From assembly GCF_022846255.1 (NCBI RefSeq), contig NZ_AP025682.1: 64,000 bases of DNA; one strand, written 5' to 3'. This document shows, piece by piece, positions 1-58,184 of this stretch (its first letter is position 1; every line of letters begins with the position of its first letter). Source of the stretch: Escherichia coli. GTDB taxonomy: Bacteria; Pseudomonadota; Gammaproteobacteria; Enterobacterales; Enterobacteriaceae. The notes beneath the pieces were generated by a model that saw only the letters and a program-made list of their open reading frames with translations, searched no databases and had not been told where the DNA came from. The translations under genes and the position numbers were made by a program.

Positions 1-219
1 TTTTCGATCATTCGTGAGGCTGGAAGACGTGCAGGATTAGCTGTAAAAGCACATCCTCATATGTTACGTCATGCCTGTGGTTTTGCTCTGGCTGACAATG
101 GTGTCGATACCCGACTACTTCAGGATTATCTGGGTCATCGAAATATTCAGCATACTGTCAGATACACAGCCAGTAATGCTGCTCGATTTAAAGGGGTGTG
201 GAAAAAAAAGCCTCGTTAA
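1..219 (+). CDS. Tyrosine site-specific recombinase, FimB/FimE family, C-terminal 72 codons only (5' end outside window)
   Basis: Frame-1 translation ...HPHMLRHACGFALADNGVDTRLLQDYLGHRNIQHTVRYTASNAARFKGVWKKKPR* has the conserved catalytic tail of FimB/FimE-type invertases; stop TAA 217-219. Track ORF 71-277 is the overlapping other frame. Confidence 0.8.
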   Translation, partial: FSIIREAGRRAGLAVKAHPHMLRHACGFALADNGVDTRLLQDYLGHRNIQHTVRYTASNAARFKGVWKKKPR

Positions 220-231
220 AACAGTACCTTC

Positions 232-247
232 TGATTCAAAATGTCAG
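232..247. repeat. Left inverted repeat TGATTCAAAATGTCAG
   Basis: Perfect 16-bp reverse-complement match to 494-509; starts 13 bp after recombinase stop. Confidence 0.7.
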
Positions 248-493
248 ATTCCTACGTTTTCCTCAATTCTTCCATAAAAAAACAGCTCATTCAATTAAAT
301 AAAACACATAACATGTTGATATTTCTCGCTAAAGTAAAATAACCCCATGATTTGAAATGATTAACCATAAAGGTCATACCAGTGATCAGTTTTCACTCGC
401 GTTGTTAAATAACACAAAATTAAAAACAATAAAAATCAAACAAATTAGATTTATATTCCAAGAAAATTAAATATTCAGGCTATTAAACCAAAC

Positions 494-509
494 CTGACAT
501 TTTGAATCA
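494..509. repeat. Right inverted repeat CTGACATTTTGAATCA
   Basis: Perfect reverse complement of 232-247; lies inside a perfect 33-bp palindrome (490-522) that ends 27 bp before the LuxR start codon. Confidence 0.7.
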
Positions 510-548
510 AAATGTCAGGTTTTGTAGCAATGGCGTGGACGAGTCTGA

Positions 549-1343
549 ATGAAGAAGCCTCTGGTTATTATCAGTGCCTGTCAGTTCACCAGGCTGGCAC
601 TGGAGTCTCTCATCCCAACGGACAGGTATCTCGTGCGGGTGTACAGCAACGTCACTACAGAGGTTGAATTCGTTTTAAAGACCTCCTGTGGCTACCTGTT
701 AGCTGATATCCCATCGCTTCCTTCGGGGGAGTTGGTTCTTCTGGCTTGTCTTGTCCGCTTGCGGAGTGATGCCGGGCAATGGCAGGTCTGCCTGACCGGT
801 GACTCCGACTGGTTCGATAATGCTCCTGCTGCAAGTCTGTATAACGGCTTCCCACGCATCGGCACCATGCTGACAGCGAGTCGTTATCAGAATCAAATTA
901 TCCGCTGGTTACTACGTCCTTTGCCCGGCGATATGAGCGATTTCTGGCTCCTGACTGCACGGGAGTTGAGCGTGCTTAAGATTCTGATGCAGGGTATGAG
1001 TTTCAGTGAGATTGCCCGTTATGAACAACGCAGTTCAAAGACCCTGCATGCGATTGCCACACGGGCTTTAATGAAACTTGGACTGGGAACACTGAGCGAT
1101 TTCAGGCTGCTCTATACGGGATGCGGTGACAGCAGAGTGAAACGGAATATACGGCTACATGCAAAATATATCGGACAACATTCCGCTCATCGACTCACTC
1201 AGTATGTGCAGAACATGGTATCCGGAATTCTTTATCCAGAGAAAGTTGCCGTTGGTGAATCAATAAATTCTGACGCCATATCCGGAAAAGTACTTTCCGG
1301 ACAAAGAAAAAATATGTCTAAAAAAAGACCAGGATTGTTATGA
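549..1343 (+). CDS. LuxR-family transcriptional regulator (264 aa), atypical N-terminal domain
   Basis: ATG at 549; LuxR-type HTH ...LTARELSVLKILMQGMSFSEIARYEQRSSKTLHAIATRALMKLGLGT...; N-terminus receiver-like but lacks the acidic DD pocket. Confidence 0.75.
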   Translation: MKKPLVIISACQFTRLALESLIPTDRYLVRVYSNVTTEVEFVLKTSCGYLLADIPSLPSGELVLLACLVRLRSDAGQWQVCLTGDSDWFDNAPAASLYNGFPRIGTMLTASRYQNQIIRWLLRPLPGDMSDFWLLTARELSVLKILMQGMSFSEIARYEQRSSKTLHAIATRALMKLGLGTLSDFRLLYTGCGDSRVKRNIRLHAKYIGQHSAHRLTQYVQNMVSGILYPEKVAVGESINSDAISGKVLSGQRKNMSKKRPGLL

Positions 1344-1496
1344 CACAGCAGCGTTGTTACTACCCCCCACTGCGGCGCATACGGACTCGCTACAGTGTAG
1401 GAGCCAAAATATTTCTACTGCTCTGGGCTGCAGGATTGGGAGGCACGCTGTACAGCCTGTACAGCGTGCTGGCGTACTGACATCTGTGAGGGAAGG

Positions 1497-2258
1497 ATGC
1501 GTTTCGTTCTTTTCTGTCCCTCAGGAATTGTACCAGCGCAGTTCGCAGCTCTATCAACCGGTTCTGTCGGCAATGTTACCTGCATCAGAACAGAAGAGGA
1601 GTTACGCAATAAATTGCGGCACAGGCCACAGAGTGTCGTGATATCGGCAGGGCGACCTGCCGAATGCGCTGAAATGTGGTTCCGATTTTATCGGGATCAC
1701 TCATTCGTGGTGGTGTTGTGCGTCGCACCCTTTTTTCTGCCACCAGATGTGAGTATTTCTGGCGTTCTCAAAAACCTGAGGTTACTGAAACCAGGAATGT
1801 CAGTAGAGCGTGTCATCAGTATTGCAAATGCCTCTGGTGGGTTTTCAGGGCTGAAACATGCAGAAATTTTGCCAGTTATGGACAGTTACTCTGTCTTTAT
1901 GAAAGAGGTGAATAACCGCACAAAGACAATCGTCATGTCAGAACGCTTCCCGGAAAAGCAAAAGAAGGTGTTGTCGTTGCTTCTTGCCGGACACAGCTGG
2001 GAATACAGTGCGCAGTTTCTCAAAACGGGGATAAGACAGATATGGCTTGCCGAGCAGTCGCTAAAAAAGCGTTGGGGAATACCGGACAGCATGTCATTGC
2101 GGGAAGCCCTGCTGCTTGGCAGCAATAAATTTCACGGTGATGGAAACGCATTGGAAACAACGAATGCCATGACATTGCGTGAAAACGGAAATACCAACAG
2201 GTATTCCGTGGTGGTAAATGCAGGGACGCAGGCTTTATCTCTGCATAAATATAAATAA
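1497..2258 (+). CDS. Second LuxR-like regulator (253 aa), degenerate HTH
   Basis: ATG at 1497 with AGGGAAGG SD; C-terminal ...EKQKKVLSLLLAGHSWEYSAQFLKTGIRQIWLAEQSLKKRWGI... resembles a LuxR/GerE HTH. Confidence 0.55.
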   Translation: MRFVLFCPSGIVPAQFAALSTGSVGNVTCIRTEEELRNKLRHRPQSVVISAGRPAECAEMWFRFYRDHSFVVVLCVAPFFLPPDVSISGVLKNLRLLKPGMSVERVISIANASGGFSGLKHAEILPVMDSYSVFMKEVNNRTKTIVMSERFPEKQKKVLSLLLAGHSWEYSAQFLKTGIRQIWLAEQSLKKRWGIPDSMSLREALLLGSNKFHGDGNALETTNAMTLRENGNTNRYSVVVNAGTQALSLHKYK

Positions 2259-2299
2259 GTGGGAAATTGAAATTAGTTACCAGAATGGAGAATTTCTTC

Positions 2300-4762
2300 A
2301 TGAAAAACAGTAAGGCATTTTACCGCAGCGCATTAGCAACAGCTATTGTTATGGCTCTTTCTGCACCAGCATTCGCTGCTGATAAAGCGGTATCAACTGA
2401 TTCGGTTACGCTGAATAAAGATAAGACAACTCTGGATCAAGATGTTGTTATTAACGGTGATAACAAGATTACAGCCGTAACAATTGAAACGTCAGATTCA
2501 GATAAAGACCTTAATGTTACTTTTGGCGGTCACGATATTACCGCCGCATCAACGGTAAACCAAGGTTTCGTTGAAGGTGTAAAAGTTAGCGGTGACAAAA
2601 ATGTTGTGATTAATGCTACAGGCTCCACCATCACAGCTCAAGGTGAAGGCACCTATGTCCGGTCTGCAATGGTCATTTCTTCAACTGGCGATGTTGTTGT
2701 TAATGGCGGTAATTTCGTTGCAAAAAATGAAAAAGGTAGTGCGACAGGGATATCTCTGGAAGGGCCCCAGGGAAATAATGTCACGCTCAATGGCACAACC
2801 ATAAATGCTCAAGGCAATAAGAACTCCAGCAACGGCTCCAGGGCAATTTTTGCTCAAAAGGTTAGCGGATTGGATGGTTTTAACGGTGATGCAACAGACA
2901 ACATTACCCTTGCTGGCTCAAATATTATTAATGGTCGGATTGAAACAATACTTATTGCCAAGGAGAATAAGGGAACTCATACAGTCAACCTGAATATTAA
3001 GGATGGCTCAGTAATTGGGGCGGCTAATAATAAACAAACAATTTATGCCTCAGCTTCGGCACAAGGAACAGGTTCAGCAACGCAAAATTTAAATTTGTCT
3101 GTTGCTGATTCAGCCATCTACTCTGATATCAAGGCCCTTTCTGTAAGCAATAGTTCAGTCGGTACCACAACAAATGTAAACATGAACGTTGCCCGCTCTT
3201 ACTGGGAAGGTAATGCTTATGCTGATGCTTATGGCGATAAAGCGAGTAGTAATCTGAATATAAATCTTTCCGATGGCTCAGTCTGGAAAGGTAACGTAGG
3301 TAAAGGTCTGGATGGTAGTGCACGTGTCACACTGAAAAACTCCAGCTGGGATGGTGATGTCAACAACGCCAAAACTGCTGTTTTTCTGACGGATGGTTCT
3401 GTGTGGAATGGTGCTGTTTCCATTAACGCGCCAGTGGACCGCGCATCAGTACCAATGGGCTCGGTTCAACCAAATAAAAGCAGTGTATCTCTGCAAAACG
3501 GGTCTGTCTGGAATGTTACGGGAGCCTCAACTGTTGATGCTCTGGCAGTAAAAGACAGTACGGTTAATATCACGAAGGCTACAGTCAATACTGGCACGTT
3601 TGCTTCTCAAAACGGCACTCTGATTGTTGATGCCTCTTCTGAAAACACTCTGGATATCAGCGGAAAAGCGAGCGGTGACTTGCGTGTTTACAGTGCGGGT
3701 TCATTGGATCTTATCAATGAACAAACGGCATTTATTTCTACCGGCAAAGACAGCACTCTAAAAGCCACAGGCACAACGGAAGGTGGTCTGTATCAATATG
3801 ACCTGACACAGGGAGCTGATGGTAACTTTTATTTCGTAAAAAACACGCATAAAGCATCCAACGCCAGCTCCGTGATTCAGGCAATGGCAGCTGCTCCGGC
3901 TAACGTTGCTAATCTGCAGGCTGACACGCTCTCCGCCCGTCAGGATGCTGTCCGTCTGAGCGAAAATGACAAGGGCGGCGTATGGATTCAGTACTTTGGC
4001 GGTAAACAGAAACATACCACCGCGGGAAATGCATCCTATGACCTGGATGTAAATGGTGTAATGCTGGGTGGTGATACCCGCTTCATAACTGAAGATGGTA
4101 GCTGGCTGGCCGGTGTGGCGATGTCTTCTGCGAAAGGTGACATGACTACCATGCAGAGCAAAGGTGACACTGAAGGTTACAGCTTCCACGCTTACCTGAG
4201 CCGCCAGTATAACAACGGTATCTTCATTGATACTGCTGCACAGTTTGGTCACTACAGCAACACGGCAGATGTTCGCCTGATGAATGGTGGCGGTACCTTT
4301 AAAGCTGACTTTAACACCAATGGTTTCGGTGCGATGGTTAAAGGTGGTTACACCTGGGAAGACGGTAATGGCCTGTTTATTCAGCCATATGCCAAACTGT
4401 CTGCTCTGACGCTGGAAGGTGTGGATTATCAGCTCAACGGCGTGGACGTTCATTCTGACAGCTATAACTCTGTGCTGGGTGAGGCCGGTACGCGCGTGGG
4501 TTATGACTTCGCTGTGGGCAACTCGACCGTTAAACCTTATCTGAATCTGGCCGCACTGAACGAATTCTCTGATGGCAACAAAGTCCGTCTGGGTGATGAG
4601 TCTGTCAATGCCAGCATTGACGGTGCAGCATTCCGCGTGGGTGCAGGTGTACAGGCTGATATCACCAAAAACATGGGAGCATATGCTAGCCTTGACTACA
4701 CCAAAGGTGACGACATTGAGAACCCGCTACAGGGTGTAGTTGGTATCAATGTGACCTGGTAA
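2300..4762 (+). CDS. Autotransporter (type Va) adhesin, pertactin/AIDA-like passenger plus C-terminal beta-barrel
   Basis: Signal peptide MKNSKAFYRSALATAIVMALSAPAFA; passenger repeats (NGTTINAQG, DGSVWKGNV, DGSVWNGAV, NGSVWNVTG); C-terminal translocator ending ...GVVGINVTW. Track ORF starts at TTG 2267; ATG 2300 has GGAG SD. Confidence 0.85.
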   Translation: MKNSKAFYRSALATAIVMALSAPAFAADKAVSTDSVTLNKDKTTLDQDVVINGDNKITAVTIETSDSDKDLNVTFGGHDITAASTVNQGFVEGVKVSGDKNVVINATGSTITAQGEGTYVRSAMVISSTGDVVVNGGNFVAKNEKGSATGISLEGPQGNNVTLNGTTINAQGNKNSSNGSRAIFAQKVSGLDGFNGDATDNITLAGSNIINGRIETILIAKENKGTHTVNLNIKDGSVIGAANNKQTIYASASAQGTGSATQNLNLSVADSAIYSDIKALSVSNSSVGTTTNVNMNVARSYWEGNAYADAYGDKASSNLNINLSDGSVWKGNVGKGLDGSARVTLKNSSWDGDVNNAKTAVFLTDGSVWNGAVSINAPVDRASVPMGSVQPNKSSVSLQNGSVWNVTGASTVDALAVKDSTVNITKATVNTGTFASQNGTLIVDASSENTLDISGKASGDLRVYSAGSLDLINEQTAFISTGKDSTLKATGTTEGGLYQYDLTQGADGNFYFVKNTHKASNASSVIQAMAAAPANVANLQADTLSARQDAVRLSENDKGGVWIQYFGGKQKHTTAGNASYDLDVNGVMLGGDTRFITEDGSWLAGVAMSSAKGDMTTMQSKGDTEGYSFHAYLSRQYNNGIFIDTAAQFGHYSNTADVRLMNGGGTFKADFNTNGFGAMVKGGYTWEDGNGLFIQPYAKLSALTLEGVDYQLNGVDVHSDSYNSVLGEAGTRVGYDFAVGNSTVKPYLNLAALNEFSDGNKVRLGDESVNASIDGAAFRVGAGVQADITKNMGAYASLDYTKGDDIENPLQGVVGINVTW

Positions 4763-4801
4763 GAATAAAGCAGTCGGTTCCCCTGTCGACTGTTATACCC
4801 C

Positions 4802-4830
4802 CCTGCAGGCAGCAGTATGCTGCCTGCAGG
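4802..4830 (+). terminator. Perfect 13-bp stem / 3-nt loop hairpin downstream of autotransporter (no U-tract)
   Basis: CCTGCAGGCAGCA-GTA-TGCTGCCTGCAGG, 40 bp after stop. Confidence 0.35.
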
Positions 4831-4946
4831 CTATAAATATCCAGTATTCATGATGCTGGCTTTTTGCTGATATTTACCCTGAACATTCCTGATACAGACT
4901 ATTAATACAATCTTATCTGCGACAGATTTCATTTTCTGGATATATT

Positions 4947-5615
4947 ATGAATGAACAAATCAAACAGGATATCGATCTGATTGAGATTTTATTTTATCTG
5001 AAGAAAAAGATTCGTGTTATCCTTTTTATTATAGCTATCTGTATGGCAATGGTGCTGTTGTTTCTGTATATCAATAAAGATAATATAAAAGTGAGTTACA
5101 GCCTAAAAATAAATCAGACAACACCAGGCATACTTGTTAGCTGTGATAGCAATAATAACTTTGTCTGTCAGACCACAATGACTGAAGATGTTATTCAGCG
5201 AATTACTACATTTTTTCAGACCAGCCCAGATGTCAAGAACAGAGAAATAAAGCTGGAATGGTCAGGAGATAAGAGAGATTTACCAACTGCTGAAGCGGAA
5301 ATATCTCGCGTGCAGGCGTCTATCATCAAATGGTATGCGTCAGAATACCATAATGGCAGGCAAGTTCTCGATGAGATACAAACGCCTTCAGCAATTAACA
5401 GTGAGCTTTATACAAAAATGATATACCTGACCAGGAACTGGTCACTATATCCGAACGGTGATGGCTGTGTCACTATAAGCTCACCAGAAATAAAAAATAA
5501 ATACCCTGCTGCCATTTGCCTGGCTCTGGGATTTTTTCTAAGTATTGTGATTTCTGTAATGTTTTGCCTTGTCAAAAAAATGGTAGATGAATACCAACAA
5601 AACTCTGGGCAGTAA
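4947..5615 (+). CDS. ykgH: Predicted inner-membrane protein YkgH
   Basis: 222 aa, N-terminal TM segment (ILFIIAICMAMVLLFLYI) and C-terminal TM; position next to ykgG matches ykgH. Confidence 0.6.
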   Translation: MNEQIKQDIDLIEILFYLKKKIRVILFIIAICMAMVLLFLYINKDNIKVSYSLKINQTTPGILVSCDSNNNFVCQTTMTEDVIQRITTFFQTSPDVKNREIKLEWSGDKRDLPTAEAEISRVQASIIKWYASEYHNGRQVLDEIQTPSAINSELYTKMIYLTRNWSLYPNGDGCVTISSPEIKNKYPAAICLALGFFLSIVISVMFCLVKKMVDEYQQNSGQ

Positions 5616-12747: not shown

Positions 12748-13632
12748 TCAATCATGTATTTTTACAGCAAGACAACCACGAACAAACTCAGGATTAAAAT
12801 GTTTTACCGATTCCCCAACATAACCTAAATCTAGCGAACTAATTTGCGCCATTTCTTTCTCTGTCAGTGAGAAATCCCAGATAGCAAAATTTTCTTCGAT
12901 ACGCTGTTGATGTGTTGATTTCGGAATAACGACCACTCCCCGTTGAATATTCCAACGCAGAATGACCTGAGAAATCGATTTTTGATGGGCATCTGCAATA
13001 CTCTGAAGCAGATTATTTTCAAAGGGTTTATGTCGTCCACCACCTAACGGAGCCCATGCTTCAGGCTGCACGTTATAATACTTCATGGTTGCCAGCGCCT
13101 CTGGTTGGGCAAAATAGGGATGCAACTCGACCTGGTTGACCATCGGTTTAACTCTTACCGTTTCACAAAAGTTCGCCAGAACATGAGGGTAGAAATTGGA
13201 AACCCCAATCGCTTTTAATTTGCCCTCTTCATAGGCATCTTCGAGTGCACGCCACGCACTAAAATAATCGCGCATGGCCTGGTGCAATAAATAGAGATCG
13301 AAGTATTCTAGCCCCGATTTTTTTAATGATGCTTCAATACCTGCTGCTGCAATATCCTGATTCAACATATCCTGCACCCACAATTTAGACGTTATAAATA
13401 ACTCTTCTCGGGTACATAAACCTTCAGATATGGCTTCACGAACGGCTTCACCGACGGCATCTTCATTACCGTATACCGCTGCAGTGTCGATGAGTCGATA
13501 ACCCGTGCGGATAGCATTCAACACTGACTGTTTGCACACGTCTTTATCGGTAACCTGAAAAACACCAAATCCCATCATCGGCATTTTCAGATTGTTACTT
13601 AATACGGAAAATTCCACTGTCAGTCCCTCCAT
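12748..13632 (-). CDS. Aldo-keto reductase (intact counterpart of the K-12 ykgQ fragment by position)
   Basis: AKR family (PMMGFGVFQ..., LIDTAAVYGNE, ...IPKS...); start uncertain (ATG 13632, or GTG/ATG a few codons in). Confidence 0.75.
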   Translation of the reverse strand: MEGLTVEFSVLSNNLKMPMMGFGVFQVTDKDVCKQSVLNAIRTGYRLIDTAAVYGNEDAVGEAVREAISEGLCTREELFITSKLWVQDMLNQDIAAAGIEASLKKSGLEYFDLYLLHQAMRDYFSAWRALEDAYEEGKLKAIGVSNFYPHVLANFCETVRVKPMVNQVELHPYFAQPEALATMKYYNVQPEAWAPLGGGRHKPFENNLLQSIADAHQKSISQVILRWNIQRGVVVIPKSTHQQRIEENFAIWDFSLTEKEMAQISSLDLGYVGESVKHFNPEFVRGCLAVKIHD

Positions 13633-13864
13633 TAGGTATGAACAATGAGTCTACGTTAAAACGTAACCTCAAATTAGTATGTGGATTTTGATATCACTTA
13701 TGCAAAAAATTCATTAATAATGTAGGACTGAAACCTCTCTATTTTTGGGGCAATGAAGCAGACGCTATCAGTGCTTTTGCCTTGGGACTTGCTGTTTTTG
13801 ATACACTTAGGGCCCAGGACATAACGAAAATGTGCGATATGACAAAGAATTAACGGAGTATGTG

Positions 13865-14722
13865 ATGATCAGGCAGAAGATTCTACAGCAGCTCCTGGAG
13901 TGGATTGAGTGCAATCTTGAGCACCCTATTTCAATCGAAGATATCGCACAGAAATCTGGCTACAGCAGACGCAACATCCAGCTTCTGTTCCGAAATTTCA
14001 TGCATGTGCCTTTGGGAGAATACATTCGCAAACGAAGGCTTTGTCGTGCCGCCATTCTTGTCCGGCTCTCCGCGAAATCTATGCTTGATATTGCACTCTC
14101 TTTGCATTTTGATTCACAGCAGTCATTCAGCCGCGAATTTAAAAAGTTATTCGGCTGCTCTCCCCGTGAATACCGCCACCGTGATTATTGGGATCTCGCA
14201 AATATCTTCCCTTCTTTTTTAATACGTCAACAGCAAAAGACGGAGTGTAGATTAGTCAACTTTCCTGAGACACCTATTTTTGGCAATTCATTTAAATATG
14301 ATATTGAAGTGTCGAATAAATTACCGGATGAAGAAGTCAAACTGCGACGTCATCATTTAGTCAGATGTATGAAGAATTTTAAGACGGATATCTATTTCGT
14401 CTCCACGTTCGAACCATCAACAAAATCGGTCGATTTGCTCACAGTTGAAACTTTTGCCGGTACGGTATGCAAACAAACCGATTCAGAGATGCCGAAAGAG
14501 TGGACAATTAACCGAGGACTGTATGCCTCTTTCCGCTATGAAGGTGAGTGGGAGCACTACCCTGAATGGGCGCGAAACCTCTATCTGATGGAATTACCTG
14601 CCAGGGGGTTAGCCAGAGTGAACGGCAGTGATATTGAGCGATTTTATTACAATGAAAACTTCGTCGAAATTGATAGCAATAACATTGTTTGCGAAATTTT
14701 TATCCCCGTTCGCCCGGTTTAG
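13865..14722 (+). CDS. ykgA: AraC/Rob-like regulator: N-terminal AraC HTH plus C-terminal GyrI-like domain
   Basis: 285 aa from MIRQKILQQLLEWIECNLEHPISIEDIAQKSGYSRRNIQLLFRNF... (Rob/SoxS-like); GGAG SD. Confidence 0.7.
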   Translation: MIRQKILQQLLEWIECNLEHPISIEDIAQKSGYSRRNIQLLFRNFMHVPLGEYIRKRRLCRAAILVRLSAKSMLDIALSLHFDSQQSFSREFKKLFGCSPREYRHRDYWDLANIFPSFLIRQQQKTECRLVNFPETPIFGNSFKYDIEVSNKLPDEEVKLRRHHLVRCMKNFKTDIYFVSTFEPSTKSVDLLTVETFAGTVCKQTDSEMPKEWTINRGLYASFRYEGEWEHYPEWARNLYLMELPARGLARVNGSDIERFYYNENFVEIDSNNIVCEIFIPVRPV

Positions 14723-14846
14723 CCTGTAACTCCATCACATAAGATTTACCCTACCCTGCCACCGTCTAATCGGTACCAGGGTAGGTATTCAGTAAATAAT
14801 GGCGCTGCGCATGTCAACGCCATTATTATTTATTACATCGTCGTTT

Positions 14847-17800
14847 TTATTTCTCCTCAGCGCCTTCAGTATCTGCAGGAACGGCGTTAATTGTCACAGT
14901 CACTGGTTTCATTTCATACCCTCCATATGTCAAAGAGTTGAATGTGAATGTGTATGTACCTGGCTTGTTGGTACTAAATGTACGCGTGATTTTCCCGCTC
15001 GCGAAATGGTCATTTTTCGACGGCAGGAACTGATAATCCGCCTCTGTCACCCCTTCCGGAGCCTCAATGTCGACCCACATGGTTCCTCCTACGGGGTTGA
15101 CACCCGACATCAGAGTAACCGTCAGTGTTGCAGTAGTCTTCCCGTCCGCCACCAGAGAATCTACACGCTCTGGAGATGCAGCGAGCACCGCGTTTTTATC
15201 ATCCGCGACGAATTTAGATTCGGCAGTTTTCGTCGATTCCTGACCGTCGGCCTGTTCCACTTTCGCCGTGAGTGTATATGTCGCTGCGACAGTGGTCGTG
15301 GCGGTGAAAATAGCCTGCCCTTGCTCATTCGTTGTCGCCGTCCCATTGGGAGTCAGAACTAAATTTTCCGGGCTGGCAGTCAGCGTCACTTCGCTATCTT
15401 TCAGCAGGTTGTTATTGGCATCAGTCACCGTAACTTTATACGTCTGTTTGGTTTTGCCGTCCGCCACTGCACGGTTGCCAATCACCTCAATACTGGAGAT
15501 GGTCGCCGTAGTCTTATCAGCCACAAACGTTACAGACTGCGCATTCGAAGGCTGGTCATTTCCTGCTGACGCCGTGATCTCATAGGTTCCGGCAGTCACG
15601 GAAACCACTTTCAGTTCCGCTTTACCCTCCTTGTCGGCGTTCACCATGATATTACCGTCTGCAAGCGGTTTGACGCCCCGAGGCAGATTAAAGACGACCA
15701 CAGCGCCAGGAAGAAGGTTGCCGTATTGATCCTTAACCGTTGCCGTCAGCGTAAAGGCATCTTTGCCGTTTGCCACTTTTTGAGCAGCGGCGTCTACCTC
15801 CAGGCTCGCCTGACCGGTACTGAAATCCGCCTTGAATTTCACCTTGACCGTCTTCTGAGAGTTTTTCACCGAGGCCTCGATCTCAAGTTCCCCTGCAACC
15901 GTTGACATAAGCTCAATGTCCACTTTCCCTGCCGCATTGGTTGTTACTGTATTCCCCGTCTTGCTGGTCACACCCTGCGGTAAAGTCAGCGTAACTTCTT
16001 GCCCCTGCAACGGGTTACCATAGCTGTCCACGACGGTCAGGGTTATCTGGTTAGCAGACTGTCCATTAGCCAGTTGGTTATTAACCTTCACTGTCATATC
16101 ACGAATCTCAGCCTTAGATGCGTCACCTGCAACATTCAGCACCAGTGGCTGAGCAACGGCATTTTGGCCGTTCACTCGCGGCATCACAGACAACTGACCC
16201 GCGGCAGATCCCAGCGTTAAGGTCGACACGTAGACCCCATTACCTTTCTCTGTCCAGTTTCCTGCTGAAGGACGCTCACTCCCCGTGCTGGCGGCACCAC
16301 TAAACACTGGTGCATCTGGCTTCAGCCCGGTGACCGGATTCCCGTACGCATCCTTCACGGTGAAGGTGAGTTCCGTCGTCGTTTTAACCGTTGGAGTTTT
16401 ATTGTCCGCAACAAGCGTAGAGTTCGCTGATGACATCTCTCCGGCAATAACAGTCAGCTGCGCGGCTTCGGTGGCTGCAGGCTGGCCGTTGAAGAGCGGC
16501 ATGACACGAAGCTCGCCCGTCTTTCCGCCTGTAGTTAACGTAGCAACATAGGAACCGTCACCTTTTTCGGTCCAACTGGAAACGGTCGCCCCTTCAGAGG
16601 CGGTCCCCGTCAAACTTGCCGACAACGAAAGACCACTGATAGCGTTGCCATGCGCATCTTTCGCCACCAGCGTTACGGTTGTGCTTTCACCGGCTTTTAC
16701 GTGATCTTCTGCGACAGAGACTTTCGACTGGTTTGAAGATAATGCATCAGCCACCACGGTTACTTTTGCCGCATTTGCTGCCGCGTCCTGCCCATTGAGC
16801 TTCGGCATAACGTCTAATTCACCCGCCGTAGTGCCGAGAGAAATCTGCGCAGTCCAGGTCCCGTCGCCATTATCCGTCCAGCCTGATGCCGTAGAACCAG
16901 CAGCAGCTGCGCCCGATAATGACGGTGCATCCGGATTGAGGCTGGTCACAGGGTTGTCATAGGCATCTTTTGCCGTCCAGATTGCCGTAACTGTACCGCC
17001 AACCACCGGTTTATCAGGATTCAGTGTGATGGACGAATGTGCTGCATCAAGCGGCCCGGCAACAAACTTCAGCGTTTGTTGTAACGTGCCCAGCTGATAC
17101 TGCTCGCTGAAGGCACGCACAACAACGTTCCCGGCACGGGTCGAAGAAACCGTGGCGCTGTAACCCCCTGGTTTTATTTCCGAAATGGCACCAACGGTTA
17201 CACCATTAGCGTCTTGCGGAACAAGTCGCAGGCGGCTGGCTTCTCCCGTCACCGGATTACCCTCGGAGTCCACCGCTGTCAGTGTCAGCGTGTAGGCTTG
17301 CTGACCATCAGCAACCACATCACCTGACGGCTCGTTAGCGCTCAGGGTGGAGTTTGCCACATCCATCATCGTGGCCCGCAGTTCTGCAGTGACAGTTTTG
17401 CTCATGTCATCAACGCTAACAGTAATCGTTGCCTCACCTGACTGCGTTCCGGTAGTAAAGACAGACTGATACACCCCTGCTTCAGTTTCGGTGAACTCAC
17501 CCAGTGTTGGCTTTGCCTGTGATTTAGTGGCCTTCAGGGTACGAGTCACAATATTTCCAGCCGGTTTGAAGGTTAGTTCAGTCTTGATCTGATCTTTCAT
17601 GCCCGTGACTGGCTGGCCCTCGGCGTCGCGCAGAGACAGCACCAGCGGCTTTTGCTCATTACCGTTAGCAAGCATTTGAATACGGCTCTGACCGTCAAGC
17701 GTTAACGCCGTACGATCGGCGCTCATACCAGCTCCGCTAATAACTACTTCTGTCTGCACACGTTTCGAGGCATTGCCTTTGTTATCGTAGGCAATCGCTG

Positions 17801-19097
17801 AAATCGCATAATAATTGTCTTTGCCTGCCTGATAAGCCGGGAGCGTCACTTGCCACTGGTTGCCCTGCCCCGTAATTTTTCCGCCTGCGGCCAGCAAAGA
17901 CGGCGCTTCCCATTGCACATTTTTCAGACCGTGAGTTGCTTTGCTGACCACAAGCCCCAGGGAAACCGTCTGGCCGCCCTTGCCTTCAATACGCTCAGGC
18001 AGAGCAATACGGATCACTTCAGATTTGCGATACTCAAGAACGATATTGTTATTACGCTCAACCAGGTCATAGCGGCTGCCTGCCAGCATTCGACGCTCGC
18101 GAATGCTGTCTGTATCGAGTTGTTTTTCCAGAGGTTCGCCAATCCGATAATTAACTTCCAGGCCAAAGCGAGTGTCATTCTCACCACTCTTGCCCTGCTT
18201 ATGCCCGGCACTCAGGGTCAGAAGAGGCACTGGCGTGTAATTCACTTCAGCGGTAATCGCATGTGGATCTTTCTGGCGTTTATCTTTACCAAACAGCCCG
18301 ACTTCATCGCCATAATACTGTTCATACATCAGGCTTGCGCCAAGCTGCGGCCAGGCGGGTAAATAGCCCTCAGCACGAATATCCCAGCCATTCGCCGGGC
18401 GTTCCTGATAATCCTCAACATCCGGCGATTTTTTCCAGCCAGAAGCCCGGATATAACCATTGGCGCTCAGTTTCAAATAATCACGCCAGTATTCCGCACC
18501 AACACCAATGCGGGTATGACTACGGGATAAATCATGATCGATAAAAGTATTCACCCCCGCCATCCAGTCATTTTCTGAAAAATGACGCCAGCCAAAACCA
18601 ATATTTGACTGAGTACGATCGTCGGTACGATGTATTGCCCCCTGAGTGAACAACATATTTGTCGGTGTATCATAAATCGGATAAAGCATTTCCAGCGAAG
18701 AGTCCTTCAGCGAGAAATTTTTATCGACATTCAGTTTGACGCGCGCAGTACCGTATTTCCCGAGCCACTCCTGAATTTCCTGGTTAGCTTTAGCGGTGGC
18801 CATTCCGGTAATAAAGTTACGTGTCGCATCGCTATCTGGCTGACTGCTTAAAAATGTCCCGGCATTAGCGGCAAGCGACGCGACATTTTTCTCCACGTTA
18901 TTATCAGCAGTTACCGTAGTATTTTCCATGCTCAACCGTGGCTGAACCGCATGCTGCGCACGTGCCGCCATTACTGGGGTAAAGGTGACAGCGAGTGGAA
19001 AAAGAACCTGAACAGAGATATTTGCCCACGCCACGCAGCGGGCCAGAACTGAATAACGAAATTGTGGTTGTTTATGACCTATTTTATAACGTGACAT
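14847..19097 (-). CDS. eaeH: Intimin/invasin-family outer-membrane adhesin EaeH/FdeC, full length (1416 aa)
   Basis: N-terminal signal plus inverse-autotransporter beta-barrel, then many tandem bacterial Ig-like domains; uninterrupted here. Confidence 0.85.
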   Translation of the reverse strand: MSRYKIGHKQPQFRYSVLARCVAWANISVQVLFPLAVTFTPVMAARAQHAVQPRLSMENTTVTADNNVEKNVASLAANAGTFLSSQPDSDATRNFITGMATAKANQEIQEWLGKYGTARVKLNVDKNFSLKDSSLEMLYPIYDTPTNMLFTQGAIHRTDDRTQSNIGFGWRHFSENDWMAGVNTFIDHDLSRSHTRIGVGAEYWRDYLKLSANGYIRASGWKKSPDVEDYQERPANGWDIRAEGYLPAWPQLGASLMYEQYYGDEVGLFGKDKRQKDPHAITAEVNYTPVPLLTLSAGHKQGKSGENDTRFGLEVNYRIGEPLEKQLDTDSIRERRMLAGSRYDLVERNNNIVLEYRKSEVIRIALPERIEGKGGQTVSLGLVVSKATHGLKNVQWEAPSLLAAGGKITGQGNQWQVTLPAYQAGKDNYYAISAIAYDNKGNASKRVQTEVVISGAGMSADRTALTLDGQSRIQMLANGNEQKPLVLSLRDAEGQPVTGMKDQIKTELTFKPAGNIVTRTLKATKSQAKPTLGEFTETEAGVYQSVFTTGTQSGEATITVSVDDMSKTVTAELRATMMDVANSTLSANEPSGDVVADGQQAYTLTLTAVDSEGNPVTGEASRLRLVPQDANGVTVGAISEIKPGGYSATVSSTRAGNVVVRAFSEQYQLGTLQQTLKFVAGPLDAAHSSITLNPDKPVVGGTVTAIWTAKDAYDNPVTSLNPDAPSLSGAAAAGSTASGWTDNGDGTWTAQISLGTTAGELDVMPKLNGQDAAANAAKVTVVADALSSNQSKVSVAEDHVKAGESTTVTLVAKDAHGNAISGLSLSASLTGTASEGATVSSWTEKGDGSYVATLTTGGKTGELRVMPLFNGQPAATEAAQLTVIAGEMSSANSTLVADNKTPTVKTTTELTFTVKDAYGNPVTGLKPDAPVFSGAASTGSERPSAGNWTEKGNGVYVSTLTLGSAAGQLSVMPRVNGQNAVAQPLVLNVAGDASKAEIRDMTVKVNNQLANGQSANQITLTVVDSYGNPLQGQEVTLTLPQGVTSKTGNTVTTNAAGKVDIELMSTVAGELEIEASVKNSQKTVKVKFKADFSTGQASLEVDAAAQKVANGKDAFTLTATVKDQYGNLLPGAVVVFNLPRGVKPLADGNIMVNADKEGKAELKVVSVTAGTYEITASAGNDQPSNAQSVTFVADKTTATISSIEVIGNRAVADGKTKQTYKVTVTDANNNLLKDSEVTLTASPENLVLTPNGTATTNEQGQAIFTATTTVAATYTLTAKVEQADGQESTKTAESKFVADDKNAVLAASPERVDSLVADGKTTATLTVTLMSGVNPVGGTMWVDIEAPEGVTEADYQFLPSKNDHFASGKITRTFSTNKPGTYTFTFNSLTYGGYEMKPVTVTINAVPADTEGAEEK

Positions 19098-19647
19098 TGA
19101 GATAATTTCCTGATGAACGAATTAACGAACATAGGCAGACACAAATAATGGCGTCTGCTTGTCAGAAAAACCGGGGATTTCCCGGTTTCCTTTTCCGCAG
19201 AAAAGGAAATACCTTTATGTAAGAAAGTACACCGCCACCTAATATATCCAGTGCCTGTAGCCACTCATCAGGTGGTTGGGCGCGGGATTATATTTTTATT
19301 TATGGGTGAAAATTTAGCTTTTTGTGCAAGTCATTAAATAGATACCTAAGTTATATTTCTTACTCTGCGGACAGTGAATAATTCATTATTCAGAGTGAAT
19401 AATAATGACCTGCCTTTAATTAGCAACTATTGGAAATACGTCGAAGTAGGTATATACGCCAGGATAAACCGATATATTTTTTATGGATATTCATTTTCCT
19501 TCATCAGACTGTGAATTGCAGGGATATCGAACTTGCACGACTCATCGCAACACTCAAACAGATTTATGAATTTCGTTCATAACCCCTGACAAATCCTGCC
19601 GTCTAATCGAGCTTTTCCCTTTACGTTATGCTTCTCATGAACGATAA

Positions 19648-22571
<2,924 letters not shown>

Positions 22572-22653
22572 CTAAACTTTCAGGAGATTTATTATGAATA
22601 AACGTATCCTCACGATTGCGCCATTCTTCTTACCGATATTCTGACACACATCA

Positions 22654-23580
22654 TTAACTTTCTATTTTTACTCTTTTCTCCACCATAAAATCAATAAAAG
22701 CACGAACTTTAGAGGGCATTCTCACCCGTGATGAAACATATATATAAAATCCAGGAAATGAAACGGCCCAATCCTCAAGAATCGGCTGTAACTTGCCCGC
22801 ATTGATATGTTCAGCGATTGCAAAATCCAGATGTTGAATGATACCCGTTCCATTCAGCGCCATTCGTATCATGCTTTCGTCATCATTAGAAATATACTTA
22901 CCTGACACCTCTATTTCGAACTCTTCATTACCCCCCACAACATTCGAAAACTCCCATGCTGAGAGTGCACCGCTACTTTTATGCCGCAACCGAAGACAAT
23001 TATGGTTACTCAATTCCTGAGGAGTTTCAGGAATACCGTGTTCTTTTAAATAATCTGGCGATGCCACAGTAACCAGTTTAATAAGCGGAGAAACAGGAAC
23101 GGCAGTCATATGCTCATCCAGTCCTTGCTCAAGACGTATGCCCACATCACAGCCGTCCGCAATAATGTTAGATAAACCGTCATCCATAATGAGTTCTATC
23201 TTTGTTTTAGGGTAACGAGTAAGAAACTCGCCAATATGAGGCTCAACAAGCATCCTTGCTGCAACACGGGAGGAATTTATTCTCAACAGTCCTGTAGGTT
23301 CAAGTTGGGTATCACCGACATCTTTCAACGCATCATCAATTTGCCCCAAAGCCGACACCAGCACTTCATACAGATGCTGTCCTTCCTCAGTAAGCGACAT
23401 ATTGCGGGTCGTACGGTATATCAGCTTGGTGTTAAGACGTTCCTCAAGAGATTTTAAATTCTGGGACAATGCGGCCCGCGTAATACCCATTTCAGAGGCT
23501 GCTCTGGAAAAACTGCCGGCACGAACAATCAGCGCAAACCAGGCAAGAGAAGGCAAAATTGAAGGCTCTATTTTCATCAT
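22654..23580 (-). CDS. LysR-family transcriptional regulator, divergent from hydrolase/OYE genes
   Basis: 308 aa from MMKIEPSILPSLAWFALIVRAGSFSRAASEMGITRAALSQNLKSLEERL. Confidence 0.8.
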   Translation of the reverse strand: MMKIEPSILPSLAWFALIVRAGSFSRAASEMGITRAALSQNLKSLEERLNTKLIYRTTRNMSLTEEGQHLYEVLVSALGQIDDALKDVGDTQLEPTGLLRINSSRVAARMLVEPHIGEFLTRYPKTKIELIMDDGLSNIIADGCDVGIRLEQGLDEHMTAVPVSPLIKLVTVASPDYLKEHGIPETPQELSNHNCLRLRHKSSGALSAWEFSNVVGGNEEFEIEVSGKYISNDDESMIRMALNGTGIIQHLDFAIAEHINAGKLQPILEDWAVSFPGFYIYVSSRVRMPSKVRAFIDFMVEKRVKIES

Positions 23581-23736
23581 TGTAAACCTTAACTTAACAC
23601 TGTGATAGATATTAGACCATTGATGATAACCAATACAAGTCATACTATTACGCCGTTCGCGATATGAACACGAATGCCAGTTGCGGATAATAGAAATGAT
23701 ATTTAAATCTGTTTAGGCAAATCCCTGGAGCTTGAA

Positions 23737-24657
23737 ATGAAAACTGTTTCGATAAAACACACTTACTGGGATATAGCTGCTGATATCTATTTCCCTGACG
23801 ATTTTAATAGTGAAAAAAAGTATCCTGCCATTATCAGTGCCCATCCAATTGGAAGCTGCAAAGAACAGACATCGGGTAGTGTGTATGGTGCCGCCCTGGC
23901 AAAAGCTGGCTTTATCGTCATTGCTTTTGATGCCAGTTTTCAGGGAAGCAGCGGTGGAGAACCGCGTTATCTGGAAGATCCAACAATGCGAGTAAAAGAC
24001 TTCAGCATTGTCGTTGATTACCTTACCACCTTACCTTACGTTGATGCCGGGCGTATTGGTGTACTGGGTATTTGTGGTGGAGGTGGATATGCCATTAATG
24101 CCGCAATGACAGAACGTCGGATTAAAGCCATTGGTACTGTCACGGGTGCAAACTACGGGCGTCTTATGCGTGAGGGATTTACAGCGTTTAATCCTATCGG
24201 AGCACTCGAAGCAATGGCGCAACAAAGAACAGACGAAGCTAACGGCGCAAAACTTCGCGTAGATGATTTGCTCCCTTCTTCTCCGGAAGCAGCTCTTGAA
24301 GCGGGATTAACAGAAATAGACCTTTTTGAAGCAACAGAATATTATCGTTCGCCACGAGGCTGTGCGCCTAATGGGGTAAATCGTTCGCTATTTTCACATC
24401 AGACTGTTGCCGTGGGCTGGGATGCTTTTCATCTTGCAGAAGTCCTGTTAACTCAACCACTAATGGTTGTAGTGGGCGATAGAGTGGGCGCTTTTGGTGC
24501 CTATCGTGACGGCTGCGAAATTATTGGTCGTGCAGCCTCAAAACATAAAGAACTGGTCGTGGTTGAAGGTTATTCACATTACGACCTGTATGATAAGCCA
24601 GAATCTGTGAAACAGGCGCTCGATAAATTAATTCCTTTTTACAAAACACATTTGTAA
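23737..24657 (+). CDS. Alpha/beta hydrolase, dienelactone-hydrolase-like with Cys nucleophile motif
   Basis: 306 aa; G-x-C-x-G nucleophile elbow (GVLGICGGGGYA); GGAG SD. Confidence 0.7.
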   Translation: MKTVSIKHTYWDIAADIYFPDDFNSEKKYPAIISAHPIGSCKEQTSGSVYGAALAKAGFIVIAFDASFQGSSGGEPRYLEDPTMRVKDFSIVVDYLTTLPYVDAGRIGVLGICGGGGYAINAAMTERRIKAIGTVTGANYGRLMREGFTAFNPIGALEAMAQQRTDEANGAKLRVDDLLPSSPEAALEAGLTEIDLFEATEYYRSPRGCAPNGVNRSLFSHQTVAVGWDAFHLAEVLLTQPLMVVVGDRVGAFGAYRDGCEIIGRAASKHKELVVVEGYSHYDLYDKPESVKQALDKLIPFYKTHL

Positions 24658-24828
24658 TAACTTTGCAGGGAGATTCATTATCTCCCTGACATTTATCCTT
24701 TATTGACTACACGACAATAATGAAATTACTCAAAAAGAATTCTATTAAAGAAAAAAGCATCAAAAAGTAGCAACTCAACTTATTAAGATTATACGCATTA
24801 AAATCAGATAAACATTTGAGGTATTGTT

Positions 24829-25971
24829 ATGACAAATAAACACCCATCATTGTTTTCTCCTTTTATGCTGACAGAAAAAATAAAGCTACGTAATCGTATC
24901 GTTATGGCTCCTATGACAACCTGGTCAGCTAATCCTGATGGAACCATCTCTGAGCAAGAACTCGAATTTTATAAACGTCGCTCACAAAATGTTGGTTTAG
25001 TAATAACAGGATGTACCTATGTCACGCCAAGCGGCATTGGGTTTACTCATGAATTTGCCGCGTATGACGACCGTTTCATTAACAGCCTTGAAAAGTTAGC
25101 AGCTGCAGCCAAAAGTGGCGGTGCTCCGGCTATTTTACAGATTTTCCACGCCGGTAATAAAGCTATCCCGGAGCTTGTGCCAAATAACGATGTTATTAGT
25201 GCCAGCGCATCAAGCGTAAAATCTGGTGACTTTATGAAGAGAGTGGTACAAAGCAGGGAAATGACTGAAAACGAAATTCAGGAAACCATTAGAGCATTCG
25301 GAGATGTCACAAAAAGGGCGATTAAAGCAGGTTTTGATGGCGTTGAACTTCATGGTGCGCACGGATTCCTTCTGCAGAATTTCTTCTCCCCTCTATTTAA
25401 CCAGCGTAATGACCGATGGGGAGGAGATCTTGAAGGACGTATGCGCTTCCCGCTGGCCGTATTACAGGAAGTAAAAAATGTAGTCTATGAATATGCGACA
25501 AAGCCCTTTGCTATCGGTTACAGAATATCTCCTGAAGAATCTGTAACAGGGGGGCTGCGGATAGAGGATACTTATAAACTCCTTGATCGACTCATTTCAT
25601 CCGGTATTTCGTATATACATACCTCGCTGGTCAGTATTAACGATAGCTACCCTGTTGAGTCGCCAAATGGCCCCCGAACTATTGAATTGATTTTAAATCA
25701 TATTGCAGGCAGAGTGCCGGTAATCGCCGCAGGTAAAATACGCACACCGTCTCAGGCTCAAGAAGCAATTTCCGCTGGCCTGCCACTTGTTGCGATCGGT
25801 AAAGGGCTGGTGATAAATCCAGAATGGGTGACTTTAGCTGAATCAGGTAGAAGTCATGAAATTCAAACAGCCCTTAATCCACAACGCGTTCCTGAATTAA
25901 CCATTCCGGATAAACTATGGGATCAAATTCAGGCATCGAAAGGAACTGGCTGGTTTCCGTTAATGGATTAA
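24829..25971 (+). CDS. NADH:flavin oxidoreductase, Old Yellow Enzyme family
   Basis: 380 aa; OYE TIM-barrel motifs (...RIVMAPMTT..., HGAHGFLLQNFFSPLFNQRND...); GAGG SD. Confidence 0.8.
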   Translation: MTNKHPSLFSPFMLTEKIKLRNRIVMAPMTTWSANPDGTISEQELEFYKRRSQNVGLVITGCTYVTPSGIGFTHEFAAYDDRFINSLEKLAAAAKSGGAPAILQIFHAGNKAIPELVPNNDVISASASSVKSGDFMKRVVQSREMTENEIQETIRAFGDVTKRAIKAGFDGVELHGAHGFLLQNFFSPLFNQRNDRWGGDLEGRMRFPLAVLQEVKNVVYEYATKPFAIGYRISPEESVTGGLRIEDTYKLLDRLISSGISYIHTSLVSINDSYPVESPNGPRTIELILNHIAGRVPVIAAGKIRTPSQAQEAISAGLPLVAIGKGLVINPEWVTLAESGRSHEIQTALNPQRVPELTIPDKLWDQIQASKGTGWFPLMD

Positions 25972-36694: not shown

Positions 36695-36901
36695 ATCTAC
36701 CCTGCTTGTACCATTATGTTATACACCTCTTTAGGAGTATTCATAAAACAAGGCAAATGTAAAGAACTGTATTGTTTTGTATAACCACATGGTTACCTAA
36801 TCGCCAATTAATATAAGCTCCATTATTTCTCCATATTTTTATGTTAGAAGTGACAAGGAGAAATGTAATGTTTCTCTCAGAGAATATAAATCATTCCTTT
36901 T

Positions 36902-36926
36902 GCCCACCTTAATGGTGGGCTTTTTT
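36902..36926 (+). terminator. Intrinsic terminator in the yagU-thrW spacer
   Basis: GCCCACC-TTAAT-GGTGGGC then TTTTTT; overlaps the stop of a 14-codon mini-ORF. Confidence 0.5.
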
Positions 36927-37151
36927 ATGCAAAACCTGAACGTCCTGTGGTATTCCTCTGGCATAATGATTTTCGCGATTAACCAACAACCAGACCAGCA
37001 AAGACGCCACCACAAGCACAGCAACATCCATCAGGCTTGCCACACCCCATGCGTGCGGCTCAAAGCCGCCATGGCATATTAATCCGCTTGCCATTTTCGA
37101 ACAGCTGATTGGTTTAGTCCGGTGTTTCCCTGCTTGCACTTAAAAATGAGC

Positions 37152-37226
37152 GGATGGGAAACTCTCGAAATGGTTCGTCGATATGCTCACCTCGCACCTA
37201 ATCACCTTACCGAACACGCACGGTAA
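37152..37226 (+). pseudogene. Remnant: last about 25 codons of a phage-type tyrosine integrase
   Basis: ...[24 protein letters not shown] (RYAHL catalytic-Tyr tail); upstream frame is not integrase-like; lies 89 bp from the tRNA-Thr 3' end. Confidence 0.45.
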
Positions 37227-37314
37227 ATAGATTCGATCCTGAACCCATCGGTCCCAAATCTGTCCCAATAAAAAATAAGGAAGGTATTAGTGATGTGTAA
37301 CTTATTGATTTAAA

Positions 37315-37390
37315 TGGTGCCGATAAGAGGAGTCGAACCTCCGACCTTCGCATTACGAATGCGCTGCTCTACCAACTGAGCTATATCGGC
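37315..37390 (-). tRNA. thrW: tRNA-Thr (anticodon CGU)
   Basis: 76-nt cloverleaf read on minus strand: acceptor GCCGATA/TATCGGC, D-arm GCTC-AGTTGGTA-GAGC, anticodon loop TTCGTAA, T-arm GGAGG-TTCGACT-CCTCT, encoded CCA. Confidence 0.95.
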
Positions 37391-49556: not shown

Positions 49557-50480
49557 TTAACGCGTTCGCTGCGAAAGCACCTGCTGCTTATCCAGCTTTT
49601 GCACCAGCGGCTGCACCACTTTATCCCCATGCTGACCAAAGTATTGATACAGCGTATCGGACGCGCTTTTAGTCAGCACCATAATCTCAATGCGCCGGTT
49701 GCCCGCGCTTTGCGGATTTTTCGCGTCCAGCAGCATCTGGTCCGCCATTGCGCTCACCTGCATCACTTTATCTTCCGGCATTCCTGCCTCTTCCAGCACC
49801 CGACGAGCCGAAAGCGCGCGGTCACCCGAAAGGTTCCAGTTGTTGTAGATATTGTTTTTGTAGGCCATCGCATCGGTATGCCCGGTAATAATAATTTTGT
49901 TATCGAGCGAGTCGAACACTGGCGCGAGCTCCACCAGCAGCGTTTTAAAGAACGGCATAATCTGCGCGCTGCCGCGTTCGAACATATTGCGATTCTGGTC
50001 GTCTTTAATCAGCACGCGTAATCCCTGCGGGACAATCTCCATCTCCAGATTCGCTTCCATATGCGCATCACGGGCAATGGTGTTGATGCTGGTTGCCAGC
50101 TCACCAAGCTCGGTGGCGGATTTCTTCTTCAGCAGCGCCGTTTTCTCGTTGACGTCGCGCGCTTTTTTCTCCGTCTCTTCCGGCACCGCCACGGTGGCAG
50201 GTTTTGACGGATGAGACGGGCTGATTTTATTTAACGGCGACAGCCCACCACCGTTAAAAATCGACTGCCCGTGCAGCGCGGCGATAATGCTTTCACGCTC
50301 GGATTTACTGACGCTATTGACAATCCACAGCGTCATAAATAGCGCCATCATCGCCAGGGTAAAGTCGGCGAACGCTACCTTCCACGCCCCGCCGTGGTGC
50401 CCGGCATGATTCTTTTTGATCTGCCGCCGGACGATGGTGGTTTTTGCCCCACGCTCGCGGCGGTTGCCCGTCTTTCTCAT
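49557..50480 (-). CDS. lafU: Lateral-flagellar stator protein, MotB-like
   Basis: 307 aa from MRKTGNRRERG...; TM segment then C-terminal OmpA-like peptidoglycan-binding domain. Confidence 0.85.
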   Translation of the reverse strand: MRKTGNRRERGAKTTIVRRQIKKNHAGHHGGAWKVAFADFTLAMMALFMTLWIVNSVSKSERESIIAALHGQSIFNGGGLSPLNKISPSHPSKPATVAVPEETEKKARDVNEKTALLKKKSATELGELATSINTIARDAHMEANLEMEIVPQGLRVLIKDDQNRNMFERGSAQIMPFFKTLLVELAPVFDSLDNKIIITGHTDAMAYKNNIYNNWNLSGDRALSARRVLEEAGMPEDKVMQVSAMADQMLLDAKNPQSAGNRRIEIMVLTKSASDTLYQYFGQHGDKVVQPLVQKLDKQQVLSQRTR

Positions 50481-50482
50481 GC

Positions 50483-51346
50483 TTATTCTTGCTCCAGCAT
50501 CGCATTCACCCATGCATCGAGGTTGGCGAAGGTCGGTTTGGACGCCAGATGCAGCAGCTTACGCCCGGCGTCCACCGCCAGCAGCGTCGGTTTGCCGCCC
50601 GCCTGGGCCACCAGCACGGTACGCACACACTCCAGCAGCGAATGTTCCGCCCGCGCCTGCTGTTCCATGGCGTTGGCGAGCGGGTCCATCAGGCAGTAGC
50701 AAATAAACACGCCTAAAAATGTCCCCACCAGCGCTGCCGCCACTTTCAGGCCAATCAGGGCGATAGAACCGTCAATTGACTGCATGGTGATGATGATGCC
50801 CAGCACTGCCGCGCAAATACCAAATCCCGGCATCGCTTCGGCGGTCCGTTGCAGCGAGCGTGACGGCGTTAACAGCGACTCTTCAGCGGTGTCCAGCTCC
50901 TGATCGAGAATGCCTTCCAGTTCATGGGCGTCGATTTTACCCATCGCCATCAGGCGAAAGTTATCGGCAATAAAAGTCACCAGCCGCTTCTGGGTTAACA
51001 CCAGCGGGTATTTCTGGAAAACGGTACTCTCTTCCGGCTGCTCAATATGCTGATCCAACATCCGCAGACCGCCGTTTTGTACCATTTCAAGCAACTCATA
51101 CAGGCACATTAATAGCTGGCGCTGAAACTCCGGCCCGAGCTGTTTTTTACTGATCACGCCTTTAATTTGATGGGCAATCTCTTTCAGCACATGTTTCGGG
51201 TTCCCAATAATCATCGCCCCGAAACCCGCACCCAAAATAATGATCATTTCCGCCGGTTGCCAGATAGCCACTAATTGGCCGCCCGCTTCAAAATAACCGC
51301 CAAATACGCAGCCGAGCACCACCAGTAAACCTAATATTTTTTGCAT
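50483..51346 (-). CDS. lafT: Lateral-flagellar stator protein, MotA-like
   Basis: 287 aa, four TM segments, MotA/TolQ/ExbB family. Confidence 0.85.
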   Translation of the reverse strand: MQKILGLLVVLGCVFGGYFEAGGQLVAIWQPAEMIIILGAGFGAMIIGNPKHVLKEIAHQIKGVISKKQLGPEFQRQLLMCLYELLEMVQNGGLRMLDQHIEQPEESTVFQKYPLVLTQKRLVTFIADNFRLMAMGKIDAHELEGILDQELDTAEESLLTPSRSLQRTAEAMPGFGICAAVLGIIITMQSIDGSIALIGLKVAAALVGTFLGVFICYCLMDPLANAMEQQARAEHSLLECVRTVLVAQAGGKPTLLAVDAGRKLLHLASKPTFANLDAWVNAMLEQE

Positions 51347-51358
51347 GATTTCTTCACT

Positions 51359-52078: not shown

Positions 52079-52097
52079 GTTTATATCCGCCTGGTGA

Positions 52098-52565: not shown

Positions 52566-52572
52566 ATTGCCT

Positions 52573-53942: not shown

Positions 53943-53946
53943 CGTC

Positions 53947-54339: not shown

Positions 54340-54361
54340 CTTTAGGGATATTCCTTCTGAG

Positions 54362-55678: not shown

Positions 55679-55812
55679 TGATGACTCCGGATAACGATGT
55701 CAGGTTATTGGCAAAAGGCGTGCCAATAATTTTTATGTGAATAATCAATAAATTGAAAAAGGGGCGGAAATGGTGTTTCCGGTCTGGCGGAAAAAAGCCT
55801 GCCGCTGAAAGC

Positions 55813-55873
<61 letters not shown>

Positions 55874-55883
55874 AAGTCCGCCA

Positions 55884-58178: not shown

Positions 58179-58184
58179 CGATAA

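Follow-up and report, generated by a model that had tools for sequence, protein, structure and literature searches.

The closest described relatives of the gene considered here are fdeC of the extraintestinal pathogenic Escherichia coli (ExPEC) strain IHE3034 (ECOK1_0290; PDB 4E9L) and eaeH of strain H10407, an enterotoxigenic E. coli (ETEC). FdeC is a surface-exposed protein of 1,416 amino acids (aa) that is induced on host contact and is protective as an antigen (PMC3324786); it is reported not to be expressed under standard laboratory conditions, and H-NS, temperature and host contact have been implicated in its regulation (PMC11143625, PMC3324786). It shares its secretion class with YeeJ and IatA-D, the other E. 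coli inverse autotransporters (PMC6714894). With intimin (Eae) and the Yersinia invasin it has in common the type Ve architecture, homologous barrels (PDB 4E1S and 4E1T) and passengers built of Ig-like domains. Here we examine the gene in a 64,000-nucleotide (nt) stretch of E. coli contig NZ_AP025682.1 (referred to below, over its whole length, as the window). We conclude with high confidence that positions 14847-19097 are an intact allele of fdeC (eaeH), encoding an intimin-like type Ve inverse autotransporter adhesin, and that the intact form is the common ancestral state.

A preliminary description of the window had proposed a full-length, uninterrupted EaeH/FdeC adhesin carried by a single 1416-codon open reading frame (ORF). 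The ORF listing gives one such frame at exactly 14847..19097, and it lies on the minus strand, which the description had not stated; it has an ATG start, a TAA stop at 14847-14849 and 0 internal stops in the 1416-aa translation. By our own arithmetic, which assumes a stop frequency of ~0.042 per codon at the local composition, an open frame of 1416 codons would arise by chance with p ~1e-27. The G+C fraction is 0.53-0.55 within the gene as against ~0.42 in both flanks. The identification as FdeC was likewise borne out, the product agreeing with the FdeC fragment of known crystal structure (PDB 4E9L, chain A) at 409/414 residues (98.8%) over aa 595-1008 and equal in length to IHE3034 FdeC. This segment (16074..17315, minus strand) is the counterpart of the crystallised, protective "region B" construct (described in PMC3324786). 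RefSeq labels a near-identical gene (99.4% DNA identity) "fdeC: inverse autotransporter adhesin FdeC", and the exact 1416-aa protein, named "inverse autotransporter adhesin FdeC", is found in public records (WP_137501325.1, BDH34607.1 and GDA39345.1). Its presence in independent records argues against frameshifts introduced by sequencing error, and the sequence of WP_137501325.1 falls in a 90%-identity cluster with 17,949 members.

Orthologues of FdeC/EaeH have been delimited by an amino acid identity above 91% (PMC3324786). The window protein is 98.8% identical to 4E9L and 91.2-99.4% identical to eight RefSeq alleles, has the expected length of ~1416 aa, and carries neither a LysM domain nor a C-type lectin cap. 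Compared with FdeC of IHE3034 and EaeH of H10407, the gene, its length of 1416 aa, its domain order and its locus are the same, and the differences are allelic only. The locus is the expected one, in that fdeC lies in a cluster of ykgA, reductase, hydrolase and LysR genes between rclABC and ykgR-ecp. The immediate neighbours (ykgA, of AraC/GyrI-like type, three aldo/keto reductases, two LysR regulators, a hydrolase and a flavin oxidoreductase) fit, also in their order, the published cluster of "up to three regulators and five reductases and hydrolases" (PMC3324786). Over 22.8 kb the window also runs colinear with the genome of strain SCU-387, the two being 99.36% identical. We found no evidence contradicting the identity as FdeC/EaeH; the gene is an ordinary, already described one, and public databases contain this very allele.

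Domain annotation agreed with the barrel and long Ig-like array that had been proposed: Pfam returned PF11924 followed by nine Invasin_D3 and four Big_1 stretches. By inspection of the translation, the N-terminus (~aa 1-44; 18966..19097, minus strand, as are the other domain coordinates) resembles a signal peptide, with a basic n-region MSRYKIGHKQPQFRYSVLAR and a 24-residue hydrophobic core CVAWANISVQVLFPLAVTFTPVMA; cleavage would probably fall near VMA/AR or ARA/QH. The 12-stranded inverse-autotransporter beta-barrel follows at aa 76-350 (18048..18872), where PF11924 (IAT_beta) matches with E=4.9e-110 and covers profile positions 3-279 of 279. In a sequence search of the PDB, this region hit two barrels of known structure, that of invasin (4E1T; E=4.6e-85, aa 113-357) and that of intimin (4E1S). 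The protein thus has a complete IAT barrel lying N-terminal to a passenger whose domains are of the bacterial Ig-like type, as in inverse autotransporters.

The first domain of the passenger is D00-like (aa 358-460; 17718..18026), aa 358-474 having matched 6TQD, a structure of intimin, in the same search (E=3.2e-11). It is followed by nine tandem Ig-like (Big_1/Invasin_D3) domains at aa 462-1411 (14865..17714), delineated with Pfam and with a profile made from the protein's own repeats: aa 462-578, 580-683, 685-786, 788-888, 890-994, 998-1093, 1094-1196, 1200-1301 and 1305-1411. The last of these has an insertion of ~15 aa and was picked up in iteration 2 (iE=1.2e-05), at a stage when the profile had been built without it. 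The passenger therefore comprises ten Ig-like domains, and its tip is Ig-like rather than lectin-like. Consistent with this, Pfam returned no LysM or C-type lectin domain in the protein at E<=0.01, and FdeC has been described as having neither (PMC6714894). YeeJ, IatC and IatD, in contrast, have LysM domains and lectin caps and occupy other loci, and the window protein scores below the cut-offs of the NCBIfam models for those proteins.

The intact state of this gene is not distinctive. Of 5,426 complete E. coli genomes searched by megablast, 5,121 have the fdeC region and 4,576 (~84%) have it at a coverage of at least 80%, indicating that an intact copy is the norm and that the broken copy of K-12 is the exception. 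Eight further alleles that we sampled are all intact, encoding proteins of 1415-1418 aa with DNA identities of 97.8% to 90.5% and protein identities of 91.2-99.4% to the window allele. Variation among alleles is concentrated in the distal passenger, with 13-21 variable columns per 50 aa beyond residue 1050 as against 1-3 in the barrel. In one strain, ECO2947 (NZ_CP046259.1), the gene is truly split by an insertion sequence (IS): at that locus (L010, 544-6076) IS621, of the IS110 family, lies inside the Ig-like array, and both halves of fdeC are kept.

The preliminary description had also given the K-12 gene as split by IS3. The alignment to K-12 and its junctions showed that IS3 is indeed at the locus, but that it does not split the gene. 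The K-12 fdeC region matches only window positions 18222-19648, at 96.7% identity, and the eaeH pseudogene (b0297) keeps the first 876 nt (codons 1-292) together with an orthologous upstream leader. The K-12 annotation runs from a pseudogene of 876 nt, labelled "inverse autotransporter beta domain" and without its C-terminus, through IS3, to a ykgA pseudogene also without its C-terminus. From the junction sequences, IS3 abuts the equivalents of window positions 14525 and 18222, so that the 3,696 bp between them (14526..18221) are missing and IS3 stands in their place; the lost interval takes in fdeC codons 293-1416, the 3'-terminal 197 nt of ykgA and the 124 bp that separate the two genes. No second, distal fdeC fragment was found in K-12 by megablast, which returned a single matching place at 25% coverage. 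The K-12 remnant is therefore an IS3-associated deletion of ~3.7 kb that also truncates ykgA, and not a simple insertion. This agrees with the report by Nesta et al. that FdeC in K-12 is an N-terminal pseudogene (PMC3324786), and IS3 has been placed at the eaeH/ykgA junction before (PMC11148124). As the K-12 barrel is cut at residue 292 of ~350 it cannot be complete, whereas that of the window is whole. Given the deletion, K-12 cannot regain fdeC by excision of the IS. The window itself, as had been stated, is free of IS3: a BLAST search with the K-12 element as query matched only the 40-50 nt of ykgA and fdeC bases that flank it. Two further stretches are missing in K-12, where the whole fdeC cluster, and not fdeC alone, has eroded: (i) window 19649-25879, a 6.2-kb block with two aldo/keto reductases, two LysR regulators, an alpha/beta hydrolase and an NADH flavin oxidoreductase, and (ii) window 12877-13601, most of another aldo/keto reductase gene.

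A mechanism for the window protein can be proposed on the basis of what is established for type Ve secretion and of its near-identity to the characterised orthologue. With its signal peptide FdeC would enter the Sec pathway; its N-terminal barrel of 12 strands (aa 76-350) would insert into the outer membrane, and the C-terminal passenger would be threaded outward through it, the ten Ig-like domains folding sequentially to give a rod that stands out from the cell surface. The three crystallised domains of FdeC span 126 A (PMC3324786), from which we extrapolate a length of ~40 nm for a ten-domain rod. The rod would then attach to collagens I, III, V and VI and to the epithelial cells of the host, binding that has been measured with FdeC-AB, a fragment from strain IHE3034 (PMC3324786). 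Expression would normally be low in culture, under H-NS and temperature control, with induction on contact with host cells. Control of fdeC by H-NS and temperature is reportedly the subject of work by Easton et al. in 2014.

Several points weigh against calling the window allele an FdeC adhesin without qualification. No NCBIfam model reached its curated cut-off with the fdeC product, the best being the IatC N-terminal model at 643 bits against 2400; the FdeC name consequently rests on near-identity and synteny and not on a family-specific hidden Markov model. We infer the adhesin function of this particular allele from its near-identity to the characterised protein. Expression of the allele could differ from that of its nearest complete-genome relative, SCU-387, given 8 aa differences in the protein and 37 nt differences upstream. 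Finally, in the avian pathogenic E. coli (APEC) strain IMT5155 the deletion of fdeC raised both adhesion to chicken cells and motility (PMC11143625), and "adhesin" may not cover the whole role of the protein.

The IMT5155 phenotype also favours another reading, in which intact fdeC mainly regulates surface behaviour (motility, aggregation and biofilm) and does not serve as a host-tissue adhesin in this strain. The aggregation of K-12 cells that express FdeC constitutively (PMC3324786) points the same way. Recombinant FdeC-AB, however, binds collagens at about 1e-8 M and also binds bladder epithelial cells (PMC3324786), and the window allele is 98.8% identical across the region tested. The two roles are compatible, and we regard a mainly regulatory function as unlikely, though it is the strongest of the alternatives.

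Less plausible still is that the intact gene is cryptic in this strain, being transcriptionally silent or non-functional, for example because of its diverged upstream region. The window allele and that of SCU-387 differ at 21 nt, and four of the 8 aa differences fall at residues 6-12, in the n-region of the signal peptide. Over the kilobase upstream of fdeC (window 19000-20000) there are 37 differences from SCU-387 as against ~3 per kb elsewhere, in a patch that spans the intergenic region between fdeC and the aldo/keto reductase gene and extends into the n-region (fdeC codons 6-12). Such divergence, and the reported absence of FdeC expression in standard laboratory conditions (PMC11143625, PMC3324786), could be taken as signs of silence. 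Yet a further complete genome, that of strain AR_0013, has this upstream allele at 100% identity, the 260 nt adjoining the ATG hardly vary across the alleles compared, and the reading frame shows no decay, 12 of the 21 nt differences leaving the encoded residue unchanged. The identity with AR_0013 argues that the locus is a mosaic of existing alleles and not a new one, and it indicates recombination between lineages. A third proposal, that the ORF is a true intimin or invasin binding Tir or beta-1 integrin, can be dismissed as next to impossible: the common barrel and Ig-like architecture, the structural matches and a 387-bit score with NCBIfam intimin_all speak for it, but that score (387.5 bits) stands against a cut-off of 1400, the domain tests refute it in that FdeC lacks the LysM domain and the C-terminal C-type lectin-like receptor-binding domain of those proteins (also PMC3324786), and the neighbours are reductases and regulators, not genes of the locus of enterocyte effacement. 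FdeC differs from intimin and invasin also in its longer passenger (10 Ig-like domains) and in its reported ligands, which are collagens and not Tir or integrin.

Upstream of the intact fdeC allele, three consecutive hairpins lie 31-112 nt ahead of the ATG (19128..19209, minus strand), evident as inverted repeats and as an RNA fold with z=-4.76. Hairpin A (19186-19209) has a 10-bp stem, hairpin B (19168-19188) an 8-bp stem followed by a U-run, and hairpin C (~19128-19151) an 8-bp stem; a Shine-Dalgarno (SD) sequence, AGGAAA, is found ~9 nt ahead of the ATG. The hairpins are nearly invariant in ten alleles, including that of K-12, and the changes in their stems are G.U-compatible on the sense strand only. 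An Rfam scan of 18900-19800 at E<=1 gave no match. The leader might be an undescribed cis-acting RNA element (attenuator, stabiliser or sensor) contributing to the temperature or host-contact dependence of FdeC expression, a proposal that we put forward as a long shot. As a separate candidate we considered a fourU-type RNA thermometer, in which the minimum free energy structure pairs UUUUCUGA with the SD region UCAGGAAA. The predicted unpaired probability of the SD rises from 0.26 at 25 C to 0.41 at 45 C and varies with the assumed 5' end, and 40% of shuffles of the upstream sequence gave an SD accessibility at or below the observed value; the small size of the rise, its dependence on the 5' end and the result of the shuffles leave the thermometer model unsupported. 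A scan of 14500-19800 gave 6 promoter-like matches against 5.7 in shuffles and 3 terminator-like matches against 4.9, with no excess of either, and we accordingly claim no promoter.

At the other end of fdeC, the gene converges on ykgA (13832..14722, plus strand; 858 nt, about 13865-14722, with the RefSeq-style start), which encodes a regulator with an AraC-type helix-turn-helix and a GyrI-like domain (Pfam HTH_18, HTH_AraC and GyrI-like) and is part of the published fdeC cluster (PMC3324786). Two strong hairpins, with stems of 13 bp and ~14 bp, occupy the 124-bp spacer between the two genes (14750..14827, minus strand; RNA fold of 14715-14860, z=-5.20). These are likely transcription terminators, probably bidirectional, that went unflagged by the simple terminator scan.

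The preliminary description counted three large adhesin systems in the window and, as gene content, this is so: the autotransporter gene hyxB (2267-4762), fdeC, and ecpRABCDE. An adhesin role for HyxB is putative. The hyxB gene belongs to the order ipbA-hyxR-hyxA-hyxB-ykgH, which is located in window 1-5600, and its product carries the beta-domain of an autotransporter; the ecp operon is found downstream. The first gene, ipbA, encodes a fimX-type tyrosine invertase and is cut by the start of the window. The ipbA-hyxR-hyxA-hyxB island is covered to at least 80% in only 1,537 of the 5,426 complete genomes.

Farther along, a tRNA-Thr gene (CGT anticodon), thrW, is located at 37315-37390. The site beside it (36900-37315) is essentially empty, holding only a short integrase remnant. 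In the closest relatives the thrW site is occupied by a 7.2-kb island with vat (encoding a vacuolating autotransporter toxin), a MarR regulator and IS1 remnants, and in K-12 by the CP4-6 prophage. From ~49560 to 64000 the window contains an apparently intact Flag-2 lateral-flagella cluster, recognised from a relative's annotation and matching ORFs, with lafU, motA-like, fliA-like, fliL, fliK, fliS, fliD, lafA and flgL genes and onward. Identity to the best relative drops to 94.9% in the lafA segment (55884-60000), from 98% in the adjoining sequence.

The literature already describes FdeC as an adhesin and a vaccine antigen. An intact fdeC marks the present strain as a wild E. coli of the usual, ExPEC-like kind and not a laboratory derivative, and beyond the correct annotation of the gene the finding has little importance.

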